Notes: generated by a model from the letters alone, not told the origin. Positions 20,711 through 30,968 are shown, numbered from the stretch's first letter. The stretch is DNA of 64,000 nt from Candidatus Desulfobia pelagia (GCA_014382295.1 JACNJZ010000093.1:570-64569), one strand, 5' to 3'. A program made the numbers and translations.

Positions 20711-22675
20711 TTATGCCGAAGGTGATGAGGCTTGCCTGGCTTTTTTTGCCTCATACATCAGGGTGTCAGCCCTGGACATGAATTGCAGTATTTCACAGGG
20801 CTCATTGTCGGGTTGGCAGGAGGTGACCCCTATGCTGATAGATAATATGTAGGGTCTGCCAGAAGTATCGTTGAAGGCCTGAATTTCCTGTTCCAGGCGT
20901 TTGACTATCGCTGTTTCATCGTCAGATCCGGTAAGGAGAACTGCAAACTCGTCACCTCCTATACGGGAAATAATATCGGATTCACGGCAGAATCGTTTCA
21001 GCACCATTGCCCCATCCTGGAGTGCGGTATCTCCTGTCTGATGTCCAAAGTCGTCGTTGATTCCTTTCATGTTGTCGAGGTCGGCATACAGGAGATGGAG
21101 TTCTTTTTTATTTCTGTTGGCAATATGAAGCTGCTGCTGGGCAAGGGTTATAAAACCCCGGCGATTGTAAAGTCCTGTCAGTTCATCGGTGATTGAGAGT
21201 TTTTTCAGGTTCTCTTTGCTCTCGGTCAGTTCATGTTCAATTTTTTTCAGATAACTGATATCAGTAGAAACAAGAACAACTTCCCTGTTGTCTTGGGTCC
21301 CTGATGGTATTGGTGTTGCAGAAATTAAAAGATGTCTCTTTTCTCCGCTGCTATCCTGGAAAACCATTTCCCCCTGGCTTACGCCACTTTTTATCATTGT
21401 TCTGATGTACTGAAGATTTTCTTCCGGGAAGATGTCGGCGAGGCTGATGATTCTTTCGTCGTGGATCGCAGCGGAAAAGAGATGTATTGCCGACCTGTTT
21501 ATTGTGGTGAGTTCTTCATCGCTATTCACAACCAGGACGTTTTCACTCATTGTTGCAATAATATTGTCCAGATAATTGCGGGAAACCGTTGATTGGGCAA
21601 TGGCATACATCATTTTTTGAAAAGATCCGACCAGTTGGGATATTTCATCTTCTGATGTGGTGTCTATATCAAGAGTATTTCCTTTCTGCCCACTGGCTAT
21701 TTCCCTGGAATAGTGGATGAGGCTCATTATCGGCCTGGTCATCCGGTGGGCTATGAAATATGAAAAAATTCCGGTCAGGAAGAGAATGAAGGCAAGGGTA
21801 ATAAGGATGGTGTTGCGTATTTTGCTGAGTTTGGCATGGATGGGTTCATACGGTATAACGGCTTGAATATTCAGGTCTATTCCCGGAACTCGGGTTGAAG
21901 CGACCAGGGAGTCAGTGTCATAAATAAGCCTTCGCTTTACATCAGCATCATTAATTGTCGCGTCTATAGAAAGAGGGAAGGCGTCAGGTGGCTTCCTGTA
22001 TTCAATTTTTATATTACCCCGGGGCGTTTCTGATGGGAAAATGGCGATAGCATTTTTTTTGCTGTCGGAGATGATGAGATAACTGTCCGGATCAAGATTT
22101 TCAGATTGAATCTTCTTGCCAAGAAGGGAATAGGGCACGGAGGCCGAGATGATTCCGGCAAATTTGTTGCCAAAATAATGGGACTTGGCCAGAGCCATTC
22201 GAATGGTTGGTATTTTTAGGTCGGGATCAGTTCCTGAGGCAAAAATAATAACTTCGGCCGGATTGGCAATAAGGCGGTTTATGAGATCTGGGCTGTGGCT
22301 TCTTTTGTTCTGGTCGTCGGAAACACCATTTACAATCTTGAACTCTTCTTCACCTTTTGTATTAATAACAGCAAGTTGGGGAAATGTTTTCTGAAAACGG
22401 GTGAAATGTTCCTGCAGGGCAAGATCACGGTAATTGTTTAGATAATCCATGACAATTCTGTCGTCAGAAATGTGGCGCAGGTCTGTTGTCAGATCATCCA
22501 GTGTATCCTGAATAATTTTTGCGGAATGACGAGAACTGTGCTTGAGATTGTCAGTCTCCAGAGTCAGGAGATACCGGGAAAGGGAACTGTTGCTGATACT
22601 TCCGAGTACCAGGCTGACAAAGAGCACTGCTCCTAAGTGGGAAAAAAGGAGTTTTGTTTTAAGAGATTTAAACAT
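20711..22675 (-). CDS. Membrane sensor diguanylate cyclase (periplasmic Cache-like domain + HAMP + PAS + GGDEF)
   Basis: 654 aa. Two TM helices flank a periplasmic region of about 270 aa, and the C-terminal GGDEF domain carries RIGGDEFAVLL. Confidence 0.85.
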   Translation of the reverse strand: MFKSLKTKLLFSHLGAVLFVSLVLGSISNSSLSRYLLTLETDNLKHSSRHSAKIIQDTLDDLTTDLRHISDDRIVMDYLNNYRDLALQEHFTRFQKTFPQLAVINTKGEEEFKIVNGVSDDQNKRSHSPDLINRLIANPAEVIIFASGTDPDLKIPTIRMALAKSHYFGNKFAGIISASVPYSLLGKKIQSENLDPDSYLIISDSKKNAIAIFPSETPRGNIKIEYRKPPDAFPLSIDATINDADVKRRLIYDTDSLVASTRVPGIDLNIQAVIPYEPIHAKLSKIRNTILITLAFILFLTGIFSYFIAHRMTRPIMSLIHYSREIASGQKGNTLDIDTTSEDEISQLVGSFQKMMYAIAQSTVSRNYLDNIIATMSENVLVVNSDEELTTINRSAIHLFSAAIHDERIISLADIFPEENLQYIRTMIKSGVSQGEMVFQDSSGEKRHLLISATPIPSGTQDNREVVLVSTDISYLKKIEHELTESKENLKKLSITDELTGLYNRRGFITLAQQQLHIANRNKKELHLLYADLDNMKGINDDFGHQTGDTALQDGAMVLKRFCRESDIISRIGGDEFAVLLTGSDDETAIVKRLEQEIQAFNDTSGRPYILSISIGVTSCQPDNEPCEILQFMSRADTLMYEAKKARQASSPSA

Positions 22676-23668: not shown

Positions 23669-25342
23669 TTATTGGTCGAGGGAGGGAGAGAAATGGGCGG
23701 ATCTGTTTTTACCGCTGCCTTTTGCTCTGTACATGGCAGTGTCAGCATATCTCATCAGGGTCTGTTCATCTGTGGCATCATCCGGACAGAATGTGACGCC
23801 GATACTTGCTGTGATATGGACTTCATTGTCCCTGCCTACAATAAAAGGGCGGGCAAGGGACTGGAGGAGCTGCCTGATAACAGGCTCGGCATCGGACTGC
23901 TGGGTTATGTTGGTGAGGATAACGGTGAATTCATCTCCTCCAAGCCGGGCAATGGTATCTGTTTGCCGCAGACAGTAGTTGAGGCGCTGGGCAACTTCAA
24001 CCAGAAGATCGTCACCTGCCTGATGACCCAGCGAGTCATTGACGTTTTTAAAGTTGTCAAGGTCAATAAACATCAGGCAGAGGAGTTTGCCGGTACGGGT
24101 GCTCTGGAAGATAGCCTGGGAAAGACGTTCCATGAACAGGGCACGATTGGGAAGACCCGTTAATACGTCAAAATTGGCCAGTTTCCAGATTTGTTTTTCT
24201 GATTCTTTTCGTTCGGTAATATCCCTGGCTGTTGAGTTGACGGCTACAATGCTGTTGTTTTCATCATCATAGTGGTGATTCATGGTCCATAGCATGTCAT
24301 GGGTCTCGCCAATGGCATTGAGTATACGGTTCTCCAGGGTGATCCGTTCTCTTTTACCCTGAACAATGTCATTGAATAGTTCTTCAGTGCTCTGACGGTC
24401 CTCGGGATGAATGAAATCAAAAAGAGAGCGGCCCAGGCATTTTTTCGGTTCAAGGCCAAAGAAGGGGTGGGCCATGTGATTGACAAAGGTGAATTTACCC
24501 CTGGTGTCTACCTGGCAGACAAGGTTGTCTGTGCCCTCAATAAACTGACGATACTGGGCCTCATTCTCTCGCAGTGTTTTTTCTGCAAGCCAGCGTCTGG
24601 ATATATCTTTTATTATGCCGACAGCATGCCATTCACTGTCTATTCGCACGGAAGACAGGGAGAGCTCAATAGGGAACTCTTTTCCCTTTTTGTTCAAGGC
24701 AAAGAGTTCAGTTGTCTTGTCTATAACCGGGCCGGTGCCTGTCAGTGAAAAAGTGTGGAAATGTTCGCTGTAGGCCTTCATATATGTTTCAGGGACAAGG
24801 CGTTTATGGATGTCTTTCCCCAGTATTTCCTGTTCCGTATAGCCAAAGATTCTCTCGGCGGCTTTGTTCCAGAAAGTGGCTTCCCCACTGCTGTTGACCA
24901 TGATGATCGCATCATTTGCAGTTTGGGTGATGGCCCTCAGTTTTGCTTCGTTTTCCTTTATTCTGGCAATGAGATCTTTTTTTTCAAATTCACGCTCCAG
25001 CCGGATAAGAATATCTTCCGTGGAGCAGGGCTTGTTGAGAAAGTCATCAGCTCCGCTGCGCAGCGCCGATATGGCAGAATTTACGTTGGCAAAACCGGTT
25101 AGAATGATAACAACGGTTTCGGGAGCCTCTTCCTTGACTTTTTTAAGGACGTCGATTCCATCCATGCCTGCCATCATCAGATCGGTAAGCACAGCATCAT
25201 GGTGATCGACTTTGAACTTTTTCAGCCCTTCCTTGCCGTTTTCGGCAAGAGAGACTGTAAAACCGACGGCGCTCAGGTCGGTTTTCAGGCTGTGGCGAAT
25301 AAGTTCTTCGTCGTCAATGATGAGGATCTTTTTGTTGCTCAT
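23669..25342 (-). CDS. Response regulator diguanylate cyclase (REC + 2 PAS + GGDEF)
   Basis: 557 aa. MSNKKILIIDDEELI, phospho-acceptor context AVLTDLMMAGMDG, and RLGGDEFTVIL. Its start codon overlaps the ettA stop (ATGA). Confidence 0.9.
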   Translation of the reverse strand: MSNKKILIIDDEELIRHSLKTDLSAVGFTVSLAENGKEGLKKFKVDHHDAVLTDLMMAGMDGIDVLKKVKEEAPETVVIILTGFANVNSAISALRSGADDFLNKPCSTEDILIRLEREFEKKDLIARIKENEAKLRAITQTANDAIIMVNSSGEATFWNKAAERIFGYTEQEILGKDIHKRLVPETYMKAYSEHFHTFSLTGTGPVIDKTTELFALNKKGKEFPIELSLSSVRIDSEWHAVGIIKDISRRWLAEKTLRENEAQYRQFIEGTDNLVCQVDTRGKFTFVNHMAHPFFGLEPKKCLGRSLFDFIHPEDRQSTEELFNDIVQGKRERITLENRILNAIGETHDMLWTMNHHYDDENNSIVAVNSTARDITERKESEKQIWKLANFDVLTGLPNRALFMERLSQAIFQSTRTGKLLCLMFIDLDNFKNVNDSLGHQAGDDLLVEVAQRLNYCLRQTDTIARLGGDEFTVILTNITQQSDAEPVIRQLLQSLARPFIVGRDNEVHITASIGVTFCPDDATDEQTLMRYADTAMYRAKGSGKNRSAHFSPSLDQ

Positions 25343-27036: not shown

Positions 27037-27087
27037 AAAAGTTTTAAGTTGAAAGTCTTAAGTTTTAAGTTCATGGATGTTACTTAT
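27037..27087. repeat. AAGTTTTAAGTT family, full copy
   Basis: AAAAGTTTTAAGTTGAAAGTCTTAAGTTTTAAGTTCATGGATGTTACTTATG is a close match to 4895-4954. It spans the cyclase stop codon and ends 13 nt upstream of the ettA ATG. Confidence 0.6.
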
Positions 27088-28789
27088 GCAGCTCAGACCA
27101 GGATACGGTTCGATTCCGGCCTGATTCTTTGGCAGAATAGAGGGCCTGGTCGGCTCTGTCAATAAGTTCTGCTTTATTATCAGCATCAACGGGATAGGAT
27201 GCAAGGCCAAAAGACATGGTTATTGTAATTTTTTTTCCTTTTGAACTGAAGCTTAATTCCTCTATGGTAGTACGAACCCTCTCAGCCTGTATGCGGCCGC
27301 CTTCCTCGTCGGAAGCTTCAAGGATCAGGGCAAATTCTTCTCCTCCGTACCGGGCTGCCAGATCAACTTGGCGAATGGAAAGTTTGAGTATCTCGGCCAC
27401 TTTTTTCAGGACCTTGTCTCCAAAGGGGTGACCGTAAGAGTCATTTATCTTTTTGAAGTGGTCTATATCGCATAAAATGAGGCAGAGGGAAGATGACTGG
27501 CGACGGGACCGGATTATCATGTTGTCAAGGCCGAGCTGGAAAGTACGGTGGTTGTTAAGTCCCGTAAGACCGTCGGTAAGGGCCATCTGGTATATTTTTT
27601 CATGGGCCTGGGCAAGTTCGATTTTTGCGGCAATCTGCCCGGCGATAAGTTCCATGATATGGCGCTGGTCTCTGCTGAATATGCCTGTTTTCTGTGAGGC
27701 TATGGTGAGTGCCCCTATTGCCTTGTCTCCCTGTTGGCTCAAGGGGACAATGAGCAGAGATTTAAAGCCGGGTATAAGTTTGTTTCTGGAAAATACAGGT
27801 GCCGGATCAGGGTAGGTTTCGGTTGGCGGCATCCAGTGATTGCAGTGAATTGCCTGTCCCACCAGCCCGTCATTGTGCAGGTATTTGCATCCTTCCAGCT
27901 CTTCAGCCTGGTAGCCATCGGCCCTGACTATAGTATGTTCAGTATCTTGGAGGAGGCTGATAGCAACAAAATCGGCATCAACAAGTTCTTTTACACTGTC
28001 AATGGCAATATCAAAGGTCTCTTTGAGCTCCAGAACACTGTTGAGCCTCTTGATTCCTTTATACAGCCGGCTGACGACGTTTGTGTATCGGGCAGCCTGC
28101 AGGAGTTGATTGCCGATGTATATCTCACGGCTTATTTTGCCTGCGGCAAGTCTTATAAATTCCTGTTCATCTTCTGTCCACTCTTTATCTGAAGAGCGGT
28201 CAATTGATAGAATCCAGAAAGGGGTGTTGCTTGTTTTTGTTTTGGTGTGGTCAGGGATCCTGGTGGCCAGGAGGCTGCCAATGCCTTTGTTGGAGGTATA
28301 GTAGGGGATATTGGCAACCTGTTGAGAGACAGGACACACCTTGACATCTTTGTGCCCCTGGAACAGCACACTGAAAATGCCGATTCCCCGGGAAGCGCAA
28401 TCGTCAAGAATGTCTTTTTTTTCTGTGGAAATGGTGTGCAGGTATACCTTTTTCACAGCGGGATCTGCTTTAAGCAGGGCTGCCGAGGTAAGACTCAGGG
28501 CCTGGCAGATTATCTGCAGCAGGAGGGTACAGGACGAATCTATGTCTTCCTGGAAGGAATTTTTGTTTGATGAATAGGTGTCTATATCAGAAAGGATAGA
28601 ATCAGCTAATGGTTCCCGGATGGTTTTTTGTGTTGTAACGGGCTTGCTTTTCGGGAGCTTTTCTGTCCGGGTGGAAAGAGATCTGTGGCTGACTCTTTTT
28701 TTTGTAAAAGATCGTATAAGAAACCAGGATATGCCGGCCACGAGGGTAACAATTATAATACTCAGAAATGTCAGGTTTACTGATGTCAT
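27080..28789 (-). CDS. Membrane-anchored GAF-domain diguanylate cyclase
   Basis: 569 aa. N-terminal TM, two GAF-like regions, and a GGDEF domain with RYGGEEFALIL. Confidence 0.85.
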   Translation of the reverse strand: MTSVNLTFLSIIIVTLVAGISWFLIRSFTKKRVSHRSLSTRTEKLPKSKPVTTQKTIREPLADSILSDIDTYSSNKNSFQEDIDSSCTLLLQIICQALSLTSAALLKADPAVKKVYLHTISTEKKDILDDCASRGIGIFSVLFQGHKDVKVCPVSQQVANIPYYTSNKGIGSLLATRIPDHTKTKTSNTPFWILSIDRSSDKEWTEDEQEFIRLAAGKISREIYIGNQLLQAARYTNVVSRLYKGIKRLNSVLELKETFDIAIDSVKELVDADFVAISLLQDTEHTIVRADGYQAEELEGCKYLHNDGLVGQAIHCNHWMPPTETYPDPAPVFSRNKLIPGFKSLLIVPLSQQGDKAIGALTIASQKTGIFSRDQRHIMELIAGQIAAKIELAQAHEKIYQMALTDGLTGLNNHRTFQLGLDNMIIRSRRQSSSLCLILCDIDHFKKINDSYGHPFGDKVLKKVAEILKLSIRQVDLAARYGGEEFALILEASDEEGGRIQAERVRTTIEELSFSSKGKKITITMSFGLASYPVDADNKAELIDRADQALYSAKESGRNRTVSWSELHK

Positions 28790-28871
28790 GGCAGTATAAT
28801 AACATGGTTGTCAGGGGTGTGGTATTGTTTTGGGAATTTTGATAATAAGTGAGAGGAATGTGCTATATCTT

Positions 28872-28898
28872 TTGACTTATTGATAGGAACATTATATG
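28872..28898 (+). promoter_or_regulatory. Possible sigma-70 promoter for the selenopeptide gene
   Basis: TTGACT (28872-28877) followed by TATATG (28893-28898) at 15-nt spacing. The spacing and -10 quality are suboptimal. Confidence 0.25.
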
Positions 28899-28982
28899 GA
28901 TAGGAAATGGTTTTTTGTGGTCTGGGGAGGCATCTGCCCGGGAGCGTTTCTCCAGAGATGAAAATGACTAAGGAGGTATTTG

Positions 28983-29318
28983 ATGAATACAAAAGAGCTG
29001 AAAAAAATGCTGGCCAGTGTGGGTATTGCTGGCTTGCTTACAGGGTTGCCGCTCACCAGTGGAACTGCCATAGGCGGCAGTGGCTGAGGAGCTAAAGATG
29101 ACAGCGCCGTGAGCGCTGAAAAAGCAGAAAAACACACCGGCGGCAGTGGTTGAGGCGCCAAGAAAGAAGGTGCCGTGAGCACCGATGAAGAAGAGCACGA
29201 AGAAGAAAAAGAAGCCGGCGGTAGTGGCTGAGGCGCTAAAAAAGAAGGTGCCGTGAGCACCGACGACAAAGATAAAGAGGAAGAGCCTGGCTCAAGCGGC
29301 TGAGGCGGAAACAAGTAA
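28983..29318 (+). CDS. Candidate multi-core selenocysteine RiPP precursor (SbtA-like), 111 codons with four in-frame UGA (Sec) codons
   Basis: AAGGAGG at 28970-28976, ATG at 28983 and TAA at 29316-29318. In-frame TGAs at 29085, 29151, 29229 and 29301 each sit in a G-(G/S)-S-G-[TGA]-G-(A/G) context. Each is followed at +15 nt by a hairpin. The N-terminus is hydrophobic and leader-like. It is on the same strand as a radical SAM/SPASM gene, 51 nt upstream of it. Confidence 0.6.
29103..29117 (+). promoter_or_regulatory. SECIS-like hairpin 1
   Basis: AGCGC-CGTGA-GCGCT starts 15 nt after TGA 29085-29087. The 5-nt loop has G at position 2. Confidence 0.55.
29169..29183 (+). promoter_or_regulatory. 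SECIS-like hairpin 2
   Basis: GGTGC-CGTGA-GCACC starts 15 nt after TGA 29151-29153. The stem differs from hairpin 1 by two compensatory base-pair changes. Confidence 0.55.
29247..29261 (+). promoter_or_regulatory. SECIS-like hairpin 3
   Basis: GGTGC-CGTGA-GCACC starts 15 nt after TGA 29229-29231. Confidence 0.55.
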
Positions 29319-29335
29319 CAGTGCAGTTTGCACTG
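29319..29335 (+). promoter_or_regulatory. SECIS-like hairpin 4 (outside the coding frame; could also act as an attenuator)
   Basis: CAGTGC-AGTTT-GCACTG starts 15 nt after TGA 29301-29303 and immediately after the TAA stop. The sequence is unrelated to hairpins 1-3, but the offset is the same and the loop also contains GU. Confidence 0.5.
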
Positions 29336-29369
29336 AATATTTTACCAGTCCCGGGTAATTGTTAGTATC

Positions 29370-30968
29370 ATGACTTCACACTGGCCCTGTCAACCGGAAG
29401 AAATTTTTGCAGCGACTCATTGCTATATCGATCCCGGCTGCTGGGCCAGAATTTTTTCATCCGCTGAAGACCTTCCCTCTCCGGAGCAGTTTCCGGAAAT
29501 TCTCAGAAGACACTGTGCACAAGTAAACCTTCCTTCATTTCTGCCGGATCTCTCCCGGTTGGAGTTACTCCTCTTTCAGGCATCGCAGAGCACAGAGAAG
29601 ATTCCTGACAGCGTTGAAAAACTCTGTGTTAATCCCTCGTTGCATCTGCTTCGGCTTTCCTGGTCAAATCTCCTGAGGATTGTAAAGGAGCGCCCTGGCA
29701 ACCCGGAAAAGTTTCTCAGGCAGGAGCCTGAATTTATCGTTATCTGGCGTGATAAGGTAAAAAACGTTATCCGGAAAAAAACAGCGTCAGACACAGATAT
29801 CCTTGCTTTGAAAGTTATACTCGAAGAACTGTCAGTCGAGGATGTGGCCGCTGAAGGCGGAGTCGCTGTTGGCGTTATTGACCGTGCGGTTGGCCGGGCA
29901 GTGAGGCAGGGCATATTGCTTCGACCTTCCTCATTGCTACAAAGGGATGCGGATTTCCCCAGGGGTGAAAATATTGATGAGCGTTTTTTCTCATCATCTG
30001 TTTTTACGCTGCAGTGGCATATTACCCAGGCCTGTGATCTTCATTGTCGTCACTGTTATGACCGGAGCAGCAGGACAGCCCTTTCCCTTGAGAAAGGGTT
30101 GGCTCTTCTCGATGATTTCCGGTCATTCTGTCTGGAAAGAAATGTCCGGGGGCAGATTTCCTTTACCGGAGGAAACCCCCTCCTGCATCCTCATTTCTTA
30201 GAATTTTACCAGGCGGCGGCAGATCGCAATCTCATGACGGCGATTCTGGGAAATCCCTGTTCGCGAGAAAAATTAGAGGAAATCTGTGCCATACAGCATC
30301 CTGTTTTTTATCAGGTGAGCTTGGAGGGACTTGCTCCCCACAATGATTATATCAGGGGAGAGGGCCATTTTGAGCGAATCATCTCTTTCCTGGAAGAGCT
30401 CAAGAAGCTTAAAATATACTCCATGGTGATGCTGACCCTGACCCGTGCCAATATGGATCAGGTCTTTGCATTGGCCGACTATCTCCGCGACAAGGTCGAT
30501 CTTTTTACTTATAATCGGCTGGCCATGGTGGGAGAGGGCGCACAGCTTCTTTCTGTCCAGCAGGATGAATATAAGGTTTTTCTGAAAGAATATCTCAAGG
30601 AAGCTTCAGAAAATCCTGTGATCAGTTTGAAAGATAACCTTTTGAACCTGACCCGTTTTGAACAGGGAAAGGCGTTATTCGGAGGATGTGCCGGACATGG
30701 ATGCGGCGCGGCTTTTAATTTTATTGCCGCACTCCCCGATGGTGAAGTACATGCCTGCCGTAAACTTCCTTCCCAGATCGGCAATTTTTTTGAGCATTCA
30801 ATCGCCGCAATATATGACGGCGAGGAGGCGAGGAAATACCGGCATGGCGCCTCATCCTGTCGATCCTGTTCAATCCGCCCTGTCTGTGGAGGATGCCCGG
30901 CAGTCGTCTATGGTTTTGGCCTGGACGTATTCACCGACCGGGATCCATATTGTTACCTGAAGAGTTGA
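29370..30968 (+). CDS. sbtM: Radical SAM/SPASM peptide maturase, selenobiotic (SbtM-like) family candidate, with an N-terminal extension of about 200 aa
   Basis: 532 aa. CDLHCRHC (CX3CX2C) at 30033-30056, FTGGNPLL, and a C-terminal auxiliary-cluster motif CRSCSIRPVCGGC at 30858-30896 plus CAGHGCGAAF...HACRKL. It is immediately downstream of the UGA-containing peptide gene. The radical SAM/SPASM call is firm. The SbtM family assignment rests on context. Confidence 0.8.
   Translation: MTSHWPCQPEEIFAATHCYIDPGCWARIFSSAEDLPSPEQFPEILRRHCAQVNLPSFLPDLSRLELLLFQASQSTEKIPDSVEKLCVNPSLHLLRLSWSNLLRIVKERPGNPEKFLRQEPEFIVIWRDKVKNVIRKKTASDTDILALKVILEELSVEDVAAEGGVAVGVIDRAVGRAVRQGILLRPSSLLQRDADFPRGENIDERFFSSSVFTLQWHITQACDLHCRHCYDRSSRTALSLEKGLALLDDFRSFCLERNVRGQISFTGGNPLLHPHFLEFYQAAADRNLMTAILGNPCSREKLEEICAIQHPVFYQVSLEGLAPHNDYIRGEGHFERIISFLEELKKLKIYSMVMLTLTRANMDQVFALADYLRDKVDLFTYNRLAMVGEGAQLLSVQQDEYKVFLKEYLKEASENPVISLKDNLLNLTRFEQGKALFGGCAGHGCGAAFNFIAALPDGEVHACRKLPSQIGNFFEHSIAAIYDGEEARKYRHGASSCRSCSIRPVCGGCPAVVYGFGLDVFTDRDPYCYLKS

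Follow-up and report, generated by a model that had tools for sequence, protein, structure and literature searches.

Four hairpins that follow the in-frame UGA codons of an sbtA gene from Candidatus Desulfobia pelagia are probably bacterial SECIS elements

A stretch of 64,000 nucleotides from Candidatus Desulfobia pelagia (GCA_014382295.1 JACNJZ010000093.1:570-64569; the whole of it is referred to below as the window) contains a short gene, sbtA, with four in-frame UGA codons, each of which is followed at a fixed distance by a small hairpin. These four hairpins are probably bacterial selenocysteine insertion sequence (SECIS) elements, one for each UGA of sbtA. This reading, to which we assign a probability of roughly 0.9, rests on the hairpins themselves, their constant position, the covariation of their paired bases, a strong codon bias, the specificity of the pattern, and its absence from related genes that encode cysteine (Cys) at the positions where sbtA would encode selenocysteine (Sec, U).

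The gene is identified from its sequence as a four-Sec member of the SbtA thio(seleno)oxazole precursors, a class of ribosomally synthesized and post-translationally modified peptide (RiPP), because residues 1-25 of its product, the leader, match NCBIfam TIGR04081 (39.6 bits; cut-off 30.5) and because the adjacent gene matches TIGR04082, the SbtM maturase (Table 1). TIGR04081 is defined by NCBIfam as the SbtA family thio(seleno)oxazole RiPP natural product precursor; a Pfam search of the precursor gave no match. With TGA read through, the product would be MNTKELKKMLASVGIAGLLTGLPLTSGTAIGGSG-U-GAKDDSAVSAEKAEKHTGGSG-U-GAKKEGAVSTDEEEHEEEKEAGGSG-U-GAKKEGAVSTDDKDKEEEPGSSG-U-GGNK, and its four G-S-G-U-G motifs appear to be Gly-Sec-Gly core motifs of the type that serves as SbtM substrate. 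SbtM converts Gly-Cys or Gly-Sec to thio- or selenooxazole, and its modification of peptides has been demonstrated in vitro (PMC9204691). The SbtA/SbtM pair was found by Haft and Basu (2011), as summarized in later accounts (PMC9204691, PMC11002830), by way of a UGA with a SECIS immediately downstream, and the table of a 2026 review lists a 'Selenobacteriocin', a selenoprotein with an SGUG motif and 2 Sec (PMC13188914). The window SbtA can be aligned over its full length with its orthologues in the related loci L083, L001 and L084. A tandem repeat with a period of 78 nt spans 29118-29284, and hairpin 3 lies within the duplicated 78-nt unit; sbtM starts 51 nt downstream of sbtA, and hairpin 4 falls inside that gap.

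Table 1. Features of the sbtA–sbtM locus, in window coordinates; R2 scores are those of the leave-out covariance model described in the text, and element names follow the probable assignment.
Feature	Position	Strand	Remarks
Shine-Dalgarno-like AAGGAGG	28970..28976	+	read from sequence; sbtA ATG 6 nt downstream
sbtA precursor gene, 111 codons	28983..29318	+	stop TAA 29316-29318; signal-peptide-like leader, then four G-S-G-U-G units
Sec codon UGA 1 (predicted)	29085..29087	+	in frame, GGSG-U-GAK context
Probable SECIS hairpin 1	29102..29118	+	CAGCGC-CGUGA-GCGCUG; encodes (D)SAVSA(E); R2 score 23.7 bits
Sec codon UGA 2 (predicted)	29151..29153	+	in frame
Probable SECIS hairpin 2	29169..29183	+	GGUGC-CGUGA-GCACC; encodes GAVST; R2 score 18.8 bits
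Sec codon UGA 3 (predicted)	29229..29231	+	in frame
Probable SECIS hairpin 3	29247..29261	+	GGUGC-CGUGA-GCACC; encodes GAVST; R2 score 19.5 bits
Sec codon UGA 4 (predicted)	29301..29303	+	in frame, stop four codons later
Probable SECIS hairpin 4	29319..29335	+	CAGUGC-AGUUU-GCACUG, in the 3' untranslated region; R2 score 27.3 bits, the window's top match
sbtM, radical SAM/SPASM maturase	29370..30968	+	TIGR04082 718.6 bits, cut-off 350

A preliminary description of this DNA had listed the four hairpins and claimed an identical offset for them, and on re-reading of the sequence all of its coordinates and sequences proved correct: the stem begins exactly 15 nt after the UGA in every case. The stems of hairpins 1-4 comprise 6, 5, 5 and 6-7 bp, and all loops are of 5 nt (CGUGA in three, AGUUU in the fourth), starting 20, 20, 20 and 21 nt after the UGA and carrying a G at position 2 that is followed by U. 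Hairpin 1, whose core AGCGC-CGUGA-GCGCU (29103-29117) reaches 6 bp on extension by one pair, is identical in L001, L083 and L029; it differs from hairpins 2 and 3 by two double substitutions, A-U to G-C and C-G to U-A, which are compensatory and are present just as had been described. The in-context energies of hairpins 1-4 are -9.8, -7.7, -7.7 and -9.2 kcal/mol. In folding of each segment, which the same description had proposed as a check, hairpin 1 is the minimum-energy fold at its -9.8 kcal/mol and repeats 2 and 3 as free RNA favor a competing helix, GGCGCC/GGUGCC, that is slightly more stable (in repeat 3, -8.2 vs -7.7 kcal/mol); when the UGA and the next 11 nt were blocked in imitation of the ribosome, hairpins 2 and 3 became the minimum-energy fold. 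While a UGA is being decoded, nucleotides +1 to +6 after it would, from established ribosome footprint geometry, lie within the ribosome. The GGCGCC/GGUGCC helix was considered as a functional structure and rejected: its 5' arm is formed by those same six nucleotides, and the consensus fold derived from 45 equally spaced family members does not contain it. A conserved lower helix of the SECIS, incorporating the UGA, was rejected as well, since RNAalifold on UGA-anchored alignments returns the 6-bp upper hairpin only.

The same arrangement recurs throughout the family. A scan of one genome per species yielded 80 sbtM loci from Desulfobulbia, Desulfobacteria, Nitrospirota and other lineages; SbtM homologues are abundant, and sbtA stands beside sbtM in most of these loci, mostly just upstream (contigs L081 and L082 begin too near sbtM to contain the sbtA leader). 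From 52 sbtA genes of other genomes, with 1-5 Sec each, a sample of 138 Sec-UGA sites was curated, and a hairpin of at least 5 bp with its loop starting 14-25 nt downstream follows 116 of them (84%), as compared with 5/20 Cys codons in equivalent repeat context and 32% of random positions. Across the family the loop starts 16-24 nt after the UGA, with modes at 20 nt (the class of the window) and 17 nt. The family hairpin has the consensus NNGC-N-G-(G/U)-N-N-GCNN, exemplified by GGUGC-AGGUA-GCACC, AGUGC-AGUUA-GCACU and GACGC-CGGUG-GCGUC.

Specificity was evaluated with two covariance models. The first (R1), built from the family hairpin, matches the four sbtA sites in the 64-kb window and nothing else. 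Over 522 kb of related loci it gives 123 matches, all but four of which lie on the sbtA strand, within or just after an sbtA gene that adjoins sbtM; 32 of the matches fall in loci outside the training set, and 28 of these 32 have a TGA 8-15 nt upstream. No R1 match occurs in the Cys-only precursors of L015, L020 and L054. The second model (R2) was trained on 75 hairpins of other genomes; the window, L001 (the nearest relative of the window in the genome scan) and every hairpin of the AGCGC-, GGUGC- and AGUGC-CGUGA types present in the window were kept out of training. Over both strands of the window (128 kb) R2 ranks the four hairpins first, at 18.8-27.3 bits, the next match scoring 11.6 bits, and neither model gives a further window match above that value. 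Because the leave-out model places these four sites at the top of the window, the hairpin pattern is beyond chance.

The last hairpin deserves separate treatment, as it stands directly 3' of the stop codon, in the 3' untranslated region (3' UTR). Here the preliminary description was right in part: the position beyond the stop, the common offset and the G-U in the loop all stand, but the sequence it had called unrelated fits the consensus NGUGC-AGUUU-GCACN. Hairpin 4 is identical in L001 and L083 between different flanks, and it is kept among the close relatives L083 (four Sec), L001 (three) and L084 (two) while the flanks have diverged. At 44 terminal Sec sites the distance from hairpin to last UGA has a standard deviation of 2.0 nt, compared with 3.5 nt for the distance to the stop; the length of the C-terminal tail and the stop-to-loop distance are inversely related (r = -0.91), longer tails going with shorter distances. 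It is unlikely that hairpin 4 acts solely, or additionally, as an intrinsic terminator or attenuator that sets the sbtA:sbtM precursor-to-enzyme ratio and is not a SECIS. Attenuation that sets such a ratio is common in RiPP operons, the hairpin is situated in the 51-nt gap ahead of sbtM, and a lax terminator pattern matches it with a 7-bp stem (4/7 G-C pairs) and the tail AAUAUUUUAC (5 T in 8). The U tract of this tail, however, is interrupted and offset, with no contiguous U run, and the hairpin follows the SECIS consensus with its invariant loop G. Moreover, in the family it is the distance to the last UGA that is held constant, the distance to the stop varying from 4 to 16 nt and the stop codon itself being part of the stem in some genes, and UGA 4 would otherwise be left without a SECIS. 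An additional, weak attenuator role for hairpin 4 before sbtM is possible.

It must also be considered that the hairpins have no RNA function and are a passive by-product of a duplicated motif, x-A-V/G-S/G-x, that is selected as protein, for example as a recognition element for SbtM. Repeats 2 and 3 are indeed a recent 78-nt duplication, and the motif is widespread in Sec-type precursors; this explanation is nevertheless very improbable, being largely refuted by codon choice. Codons were compared over 55 distinct coding occurrences of x-A-[GV]-[SG]-x, in which the core pairs stand in constant codon phase (c1p1-c5p3, c1p2-c5p2, c1p3-c5p1, c2p1-c4p3 and c2p2-c4p2, where c is the codon and p the position in it), and all five are intact in 51/55, as against 2.9 ± 1.6 (maximum 9/55) when synonymous codons were resampled from sbtM usage in 2000 runs; the pairing is thus more than 30 standard deviations above the synonymous-codon expectation. 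Where the fourth codon specifies Ser it is AGC in 35/36 cases, AGU in 1 and UCN in none (background AGC 21%, UCN 70%), and where it specifies Gly it is GGC in 19/19 (background 41%). The outer codons covary as GGU/ACC, AGU/ACU, AGC/GCU, GGC/GCC, GAC/GUC and GGA/UCC, and the encoded amino-acid pair switches with them (G...T, S...A, D...V, G...S), so that base pairing is kept as the amino acids change, for example in D...V as GAC/GUC. The non-coding hairpins of the 3' UTR have the same consensus, which a motif selected as protein does not account for.

Covariation leads to the same result. When 84 distinct hairpins are aligned without gaps, every one carries the loop G, and double changes occur in all six core pairs, with swaps such as G-C (38) vs A-U (37) and U-A (58) vs C-G (23). 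The covariation score is 0.433, compared with 0.191 for shuffles (0/500 reach 0.433) and at most 0.172 for slid partners, in a set that had been preselected for at least 4 contiguous pairs, which makes the percentage paired partly circular; the codon resampling, the leave-out test and the outer pairs are free of that circularity. Taken together, codon choice and covariation go far beyond what the peptide requires and support selection on RNA structure, as the preliminary description had argued from two double substitutions and had suggested following up across orthologous loci.

Precursors that use Cys provide the complementary comparison. The motif A-(G/V)-(S/G)-(T/A/V/S) follows 65/96 internal Sec sites vs 0/20 Cys sites, the latter a small control of 20 sites from 5 genes; Cys-type precursors, whose SbtM enzymes are homologous, are entirely without it, and they are without the hairpin too. 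The suggestion made earlier that the AVS(A/T) peptide is a by-product of SECIS constraints is supported, because hairpin and motif are missing together from these genes. Cys repeats are also more closely spaced (median 11 residues, minimum 5) than Sec repeats (median 21), and we propose that both the A-V-S-(A/T) motif and the spacing of about 20 residues between Sec are consequences of encoding a SECIS after each UGA. That the UGAs are true stops, with a 34-residue leader as the product and the downstream repeats as non-coding regulatory hairpins, is scarcely credible: public gene calls in related contigs do stop at the first UGA (33-34 amino acids), but 52 genes maintain the frame and its G-S-G-U-G contexts past every UGA, Cys-type relatives have Cys codons at the repeat positions, the hairpins keep a constant codon phase, and SbtM modifies Gly-Cys/Sec peptides in vitro (PMC9204691).

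The SECIS reading agrees with the published consensus for bacterial SECIS (bSECIS) elements, which specifies an apical loop of 3-9 nt capping an upper stem of 4-16 bp, a G at loop position 1 or 2 that is usually followed by G or U, a loop spacing of 16-37 nt after the UGA and a minimum free energy of at most -7.5 kcal/mol (PMC13188914). All four window hairpins lie within every one of these sequence and structure bounds, hairpins 2 and 3 being borderline on energy, as the preliminary description had anticipated in recognizing a bacterial SECIS. The same model looks for Cys in place of the UGA in homologues, and TGC or TGT codons are found in the precursors of L015, L020 and L054, in the same S/G-x-S/G repeat context and beside homologous sbtM genes; the precursors of L056, L058 and L024 mix Sec and Cys. 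It looks as well for conserved structure with compensatory changes among orthologues, and all six pairs are doubly changed.

Several observations, in addition to the preselected covariation set and the small Cys-type control, weigh against a SECIS function. Hairpins 2 and 3 are marginally stable (-7.7 kcal/mol) and in free RNA have to compete with the GGCGCC/GGUGCC helix. Most bSECIS loops have an N1-N2 closing pair, which is missing from the CGUGA loops, and no window hairpin contains a bulged U such as that of E. coli fdhF. Rfam (Rfam 15, SECIS models included), a search of which had also been suggested, gives no relevant match in 28800-29500 at E <= 10, and the matches in the sbtA region at that level are spurious ones to small nucleolar and long non-coding RNAs only; the hairpins are too short, and this null result is uninformative. 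Finally, there is no tRNA gene anywhere in the 64-kb window, and no gene of the Sec machinery among ten neighbors checked (those scanned encode GGDEF proteins, EttA, a PstS-like protein, a Gfo/Idh/MocA oxidoreductase and NadA). Other selenoprotein genes were sought in the window as pairs of open reading frames (ORFs) joined by an in-frame TGA, and nothing convincing was found among them.

If the four hairpins are SECIS elements, decoding of sbtA would proceed as follows; binding by SelB, insertion of Sec and the ribosome geometry at these particular hairpins are inferred. As a UGA enters the ribosomal A site, the first ~10 nt after it would occupy the mRNA channel, placing the hairpin, 15 nt downstream, at the channel entrance. 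SelB, loaded with GTP and Sec-tRNA(Sec), would attach through its C-terminal domain to the apical loop of the hairpin (N-G-U/G-N-N on a stem closed by G-C) and deliver selenocysteine, and termination by release factor 2 would be averted. The ribosome would then melt the hairpin and translate it as x-Ala-(Val/Gly)-(Ser/Gly)-x, and the cycle would be repeated at each following UGA. The last Sec would be followed by only four codons before the stop, and for this reason its SECIS would lie in the 3' UTR, right after the stop codon. SbtM would subsequently turn each Gly-Sec to a selenooxazole.

Comparison with known systems shows both likenesses and differences. The SECIS of E. coli fdhF reads TGA-CACGGCCCATC-GGTTGC-AGGTCT-GCACC, a sequence verified at genes annotated as fdhF in 5419 genomes of E. 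coli. It shares with the sbtA hairpins the stem sequence GGUGC/GCACC, the G-C closing pair, a loop G followed by U or G, and a position just 3' of an in-frame UGA; many hairpins of the sbtA family are GGUGC-AGGUA-GCACC, and those of the 12-nt-offset class share with fdhF a loop that starts 17 nt after the UGA. However, the SelB-binding upper hairpin of fdhF begins 11 nt after the UGA, while those of the window begin 15 nt after it, one codon further; no conserved lower helix is predicted for the window hairpins, which also lack the bulged U; hairpins 1-3 carry the loop CGUGA; and the window has four elements in a single 336-nt gene, the last of them in the 3' UTR. The 3'-UTR placement has an engineered counterpart, in that a SECIS set behind the stop codon has been used to introduce C-terminal Sec in proteins made in E. 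coli, recombinant thioredoxin reductase being one case. There too a hairpin just past the stop serves a UGA a few codons upstream, but the sbtA arrangement is natural and is conserved over the 44 terminal Sec sites examined.

With the described SbtA/SbtM system the window shares the leader, the G-U-G motif, the adjacent SbtM and a UGA with a SECIS immediately downstream, and it differs in having four Sec rather than the two of the review table (PMC13188914). The selenopeptide family to which the window sbtA belongs, as a member with four Sec, had thus been described before, its SECIS having been reported in 2011. Codon-level covariation, the by-product motif, the terminal 3'-UTR SECIS and relic hairpins were not found in the reviews, although the primary papers (Haft and Basu 2011; Lewis et al. 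2021) may cover some of them; the codon-level proof, together with the by-product motif and the placement in the 3' UTR, refines what was known and comes as no surprise.

Certain relatives depart from the pattern of one hairpin after each UGA. In sbtA genes of a Nitrospirota type (L032, L034, L040, L047, L052, L058 and L070; e.g. L034:2754-2868) the internal Sec-UGAs are followed by 'KKGDAQQxPAKS(G/S)U' and are without an fdhF-like hairpin, and the last UGA alone has one, UAGUGC-GGUC-GCACUA, with the stop codon within the stem. For these seven genes RNAalifold predicts a helix of 10-12 bp between the GDAQ codons and a stretch across the next UGA, with almost no covariation; the internal UGAs may use this long-range helix, or a distal hairpin in the 3' UTR. 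Elsewhere two Sec-UGAs 6-15 nt apart are followed by one hairpin (L005:934, L029:1796, L057:2369 and L079:222; 12 nt in L029 and L057), whose loop lies ~30-35 nt after the first UGA, within the 16-37 nt range of the bSECIS model, and a single SECIS may serve both. The window contains neither UGA doublets with a shared hairpin nor Nitrospirota-type UGAs. Hairpins are also found at the usual distance after sense codons one mutation from TGA: CGA at L013:2744, TCA at L044:2838, L078:2823 and L002:283, and GGA at L012:2750. Relatives have UGA at those positions, and these hairpins look like relic SECIS elements left after loss of Sec, or else reflect errors in the assembly consensus.

Further features of the locus and its surroundings were recorded. 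The SbtA leaders of many loci (e.g. L005, L021 and L034, with ...LTLSGC... and ...LMAGGC...) resemble lipoprotein signal peptides, the lipobox Cys (L-x-G/A-C) standing just ahead of the Sec repeats; the window leader (…GLPLTSGTAIGGSGU) has no lipobox Cys. A box at 29349-29356, TCCCGGGT, which lies past hairpin 4 and ahead of the sbtM start codon, is invariant in the window, L083, L001 and L084 although these four intergenic regions have otherwise diverged, and the sbtM ATG has no obvious Shine-Dalgarno sequence upstream. A 140-amino-acid ORF on the - strand (28892-29314) overlaps sbtA and is probably a shadow ORF; the sbtA hairpins appear terminator-like on the - strand too, but only by virtue of their palindromy and of flanking A-rich Lys and Glu codons. 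At least three GGDEF diguanylate cyclases are encoded in the window, all on the - strand (20711-22675, 23669-25342 and 27080-28789), and the only Rfam match above its gathering threshold in the whole window is a c-di-GMP-I riboswitch aptamer (RF01051; 13748-13844, - strand; 42.1 bits against a threshold of 35).

These results bear first on annotation. Public gene calls end sbtA at the first UGA (L083:1104-1208 and L084:963-1064, 33-34 amino acids, assigned to PF27804 GSU1558_StbA-like), and the Sec-containing core is consequently missing from public protein sets; recognition of the SECIS elements restores the correct precursor annotation with its four Sec. The short hairpin model is specific (4/123 matches off sbtA in 522 kb) and could be used to find and correctly extend sbtA genes. 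For selenopeptide design, the hairpins would offer a compact natural SECIS cassette of 15-17 nt that tolerates several encoded peptides and can be placed right after a stop codon. The known picture of Sec decoding is unchanged. It is conceivable, though we consider it doubtful, that SbtA as a whole owes its architecture to the need for one SECIS at each UGA, its spacers of about 20 residues and its motif being translated RNA structure with no function as peptide, and that the family may hold non-canonical Sec decoding besides. For sbtA itself the implication is that an RNA signal constrains which codons are used, which motif the peptide carries and how far apart the reactive residues stand in the precursor of a natural product, and that the Cys-type relatives are free of all three constraints.

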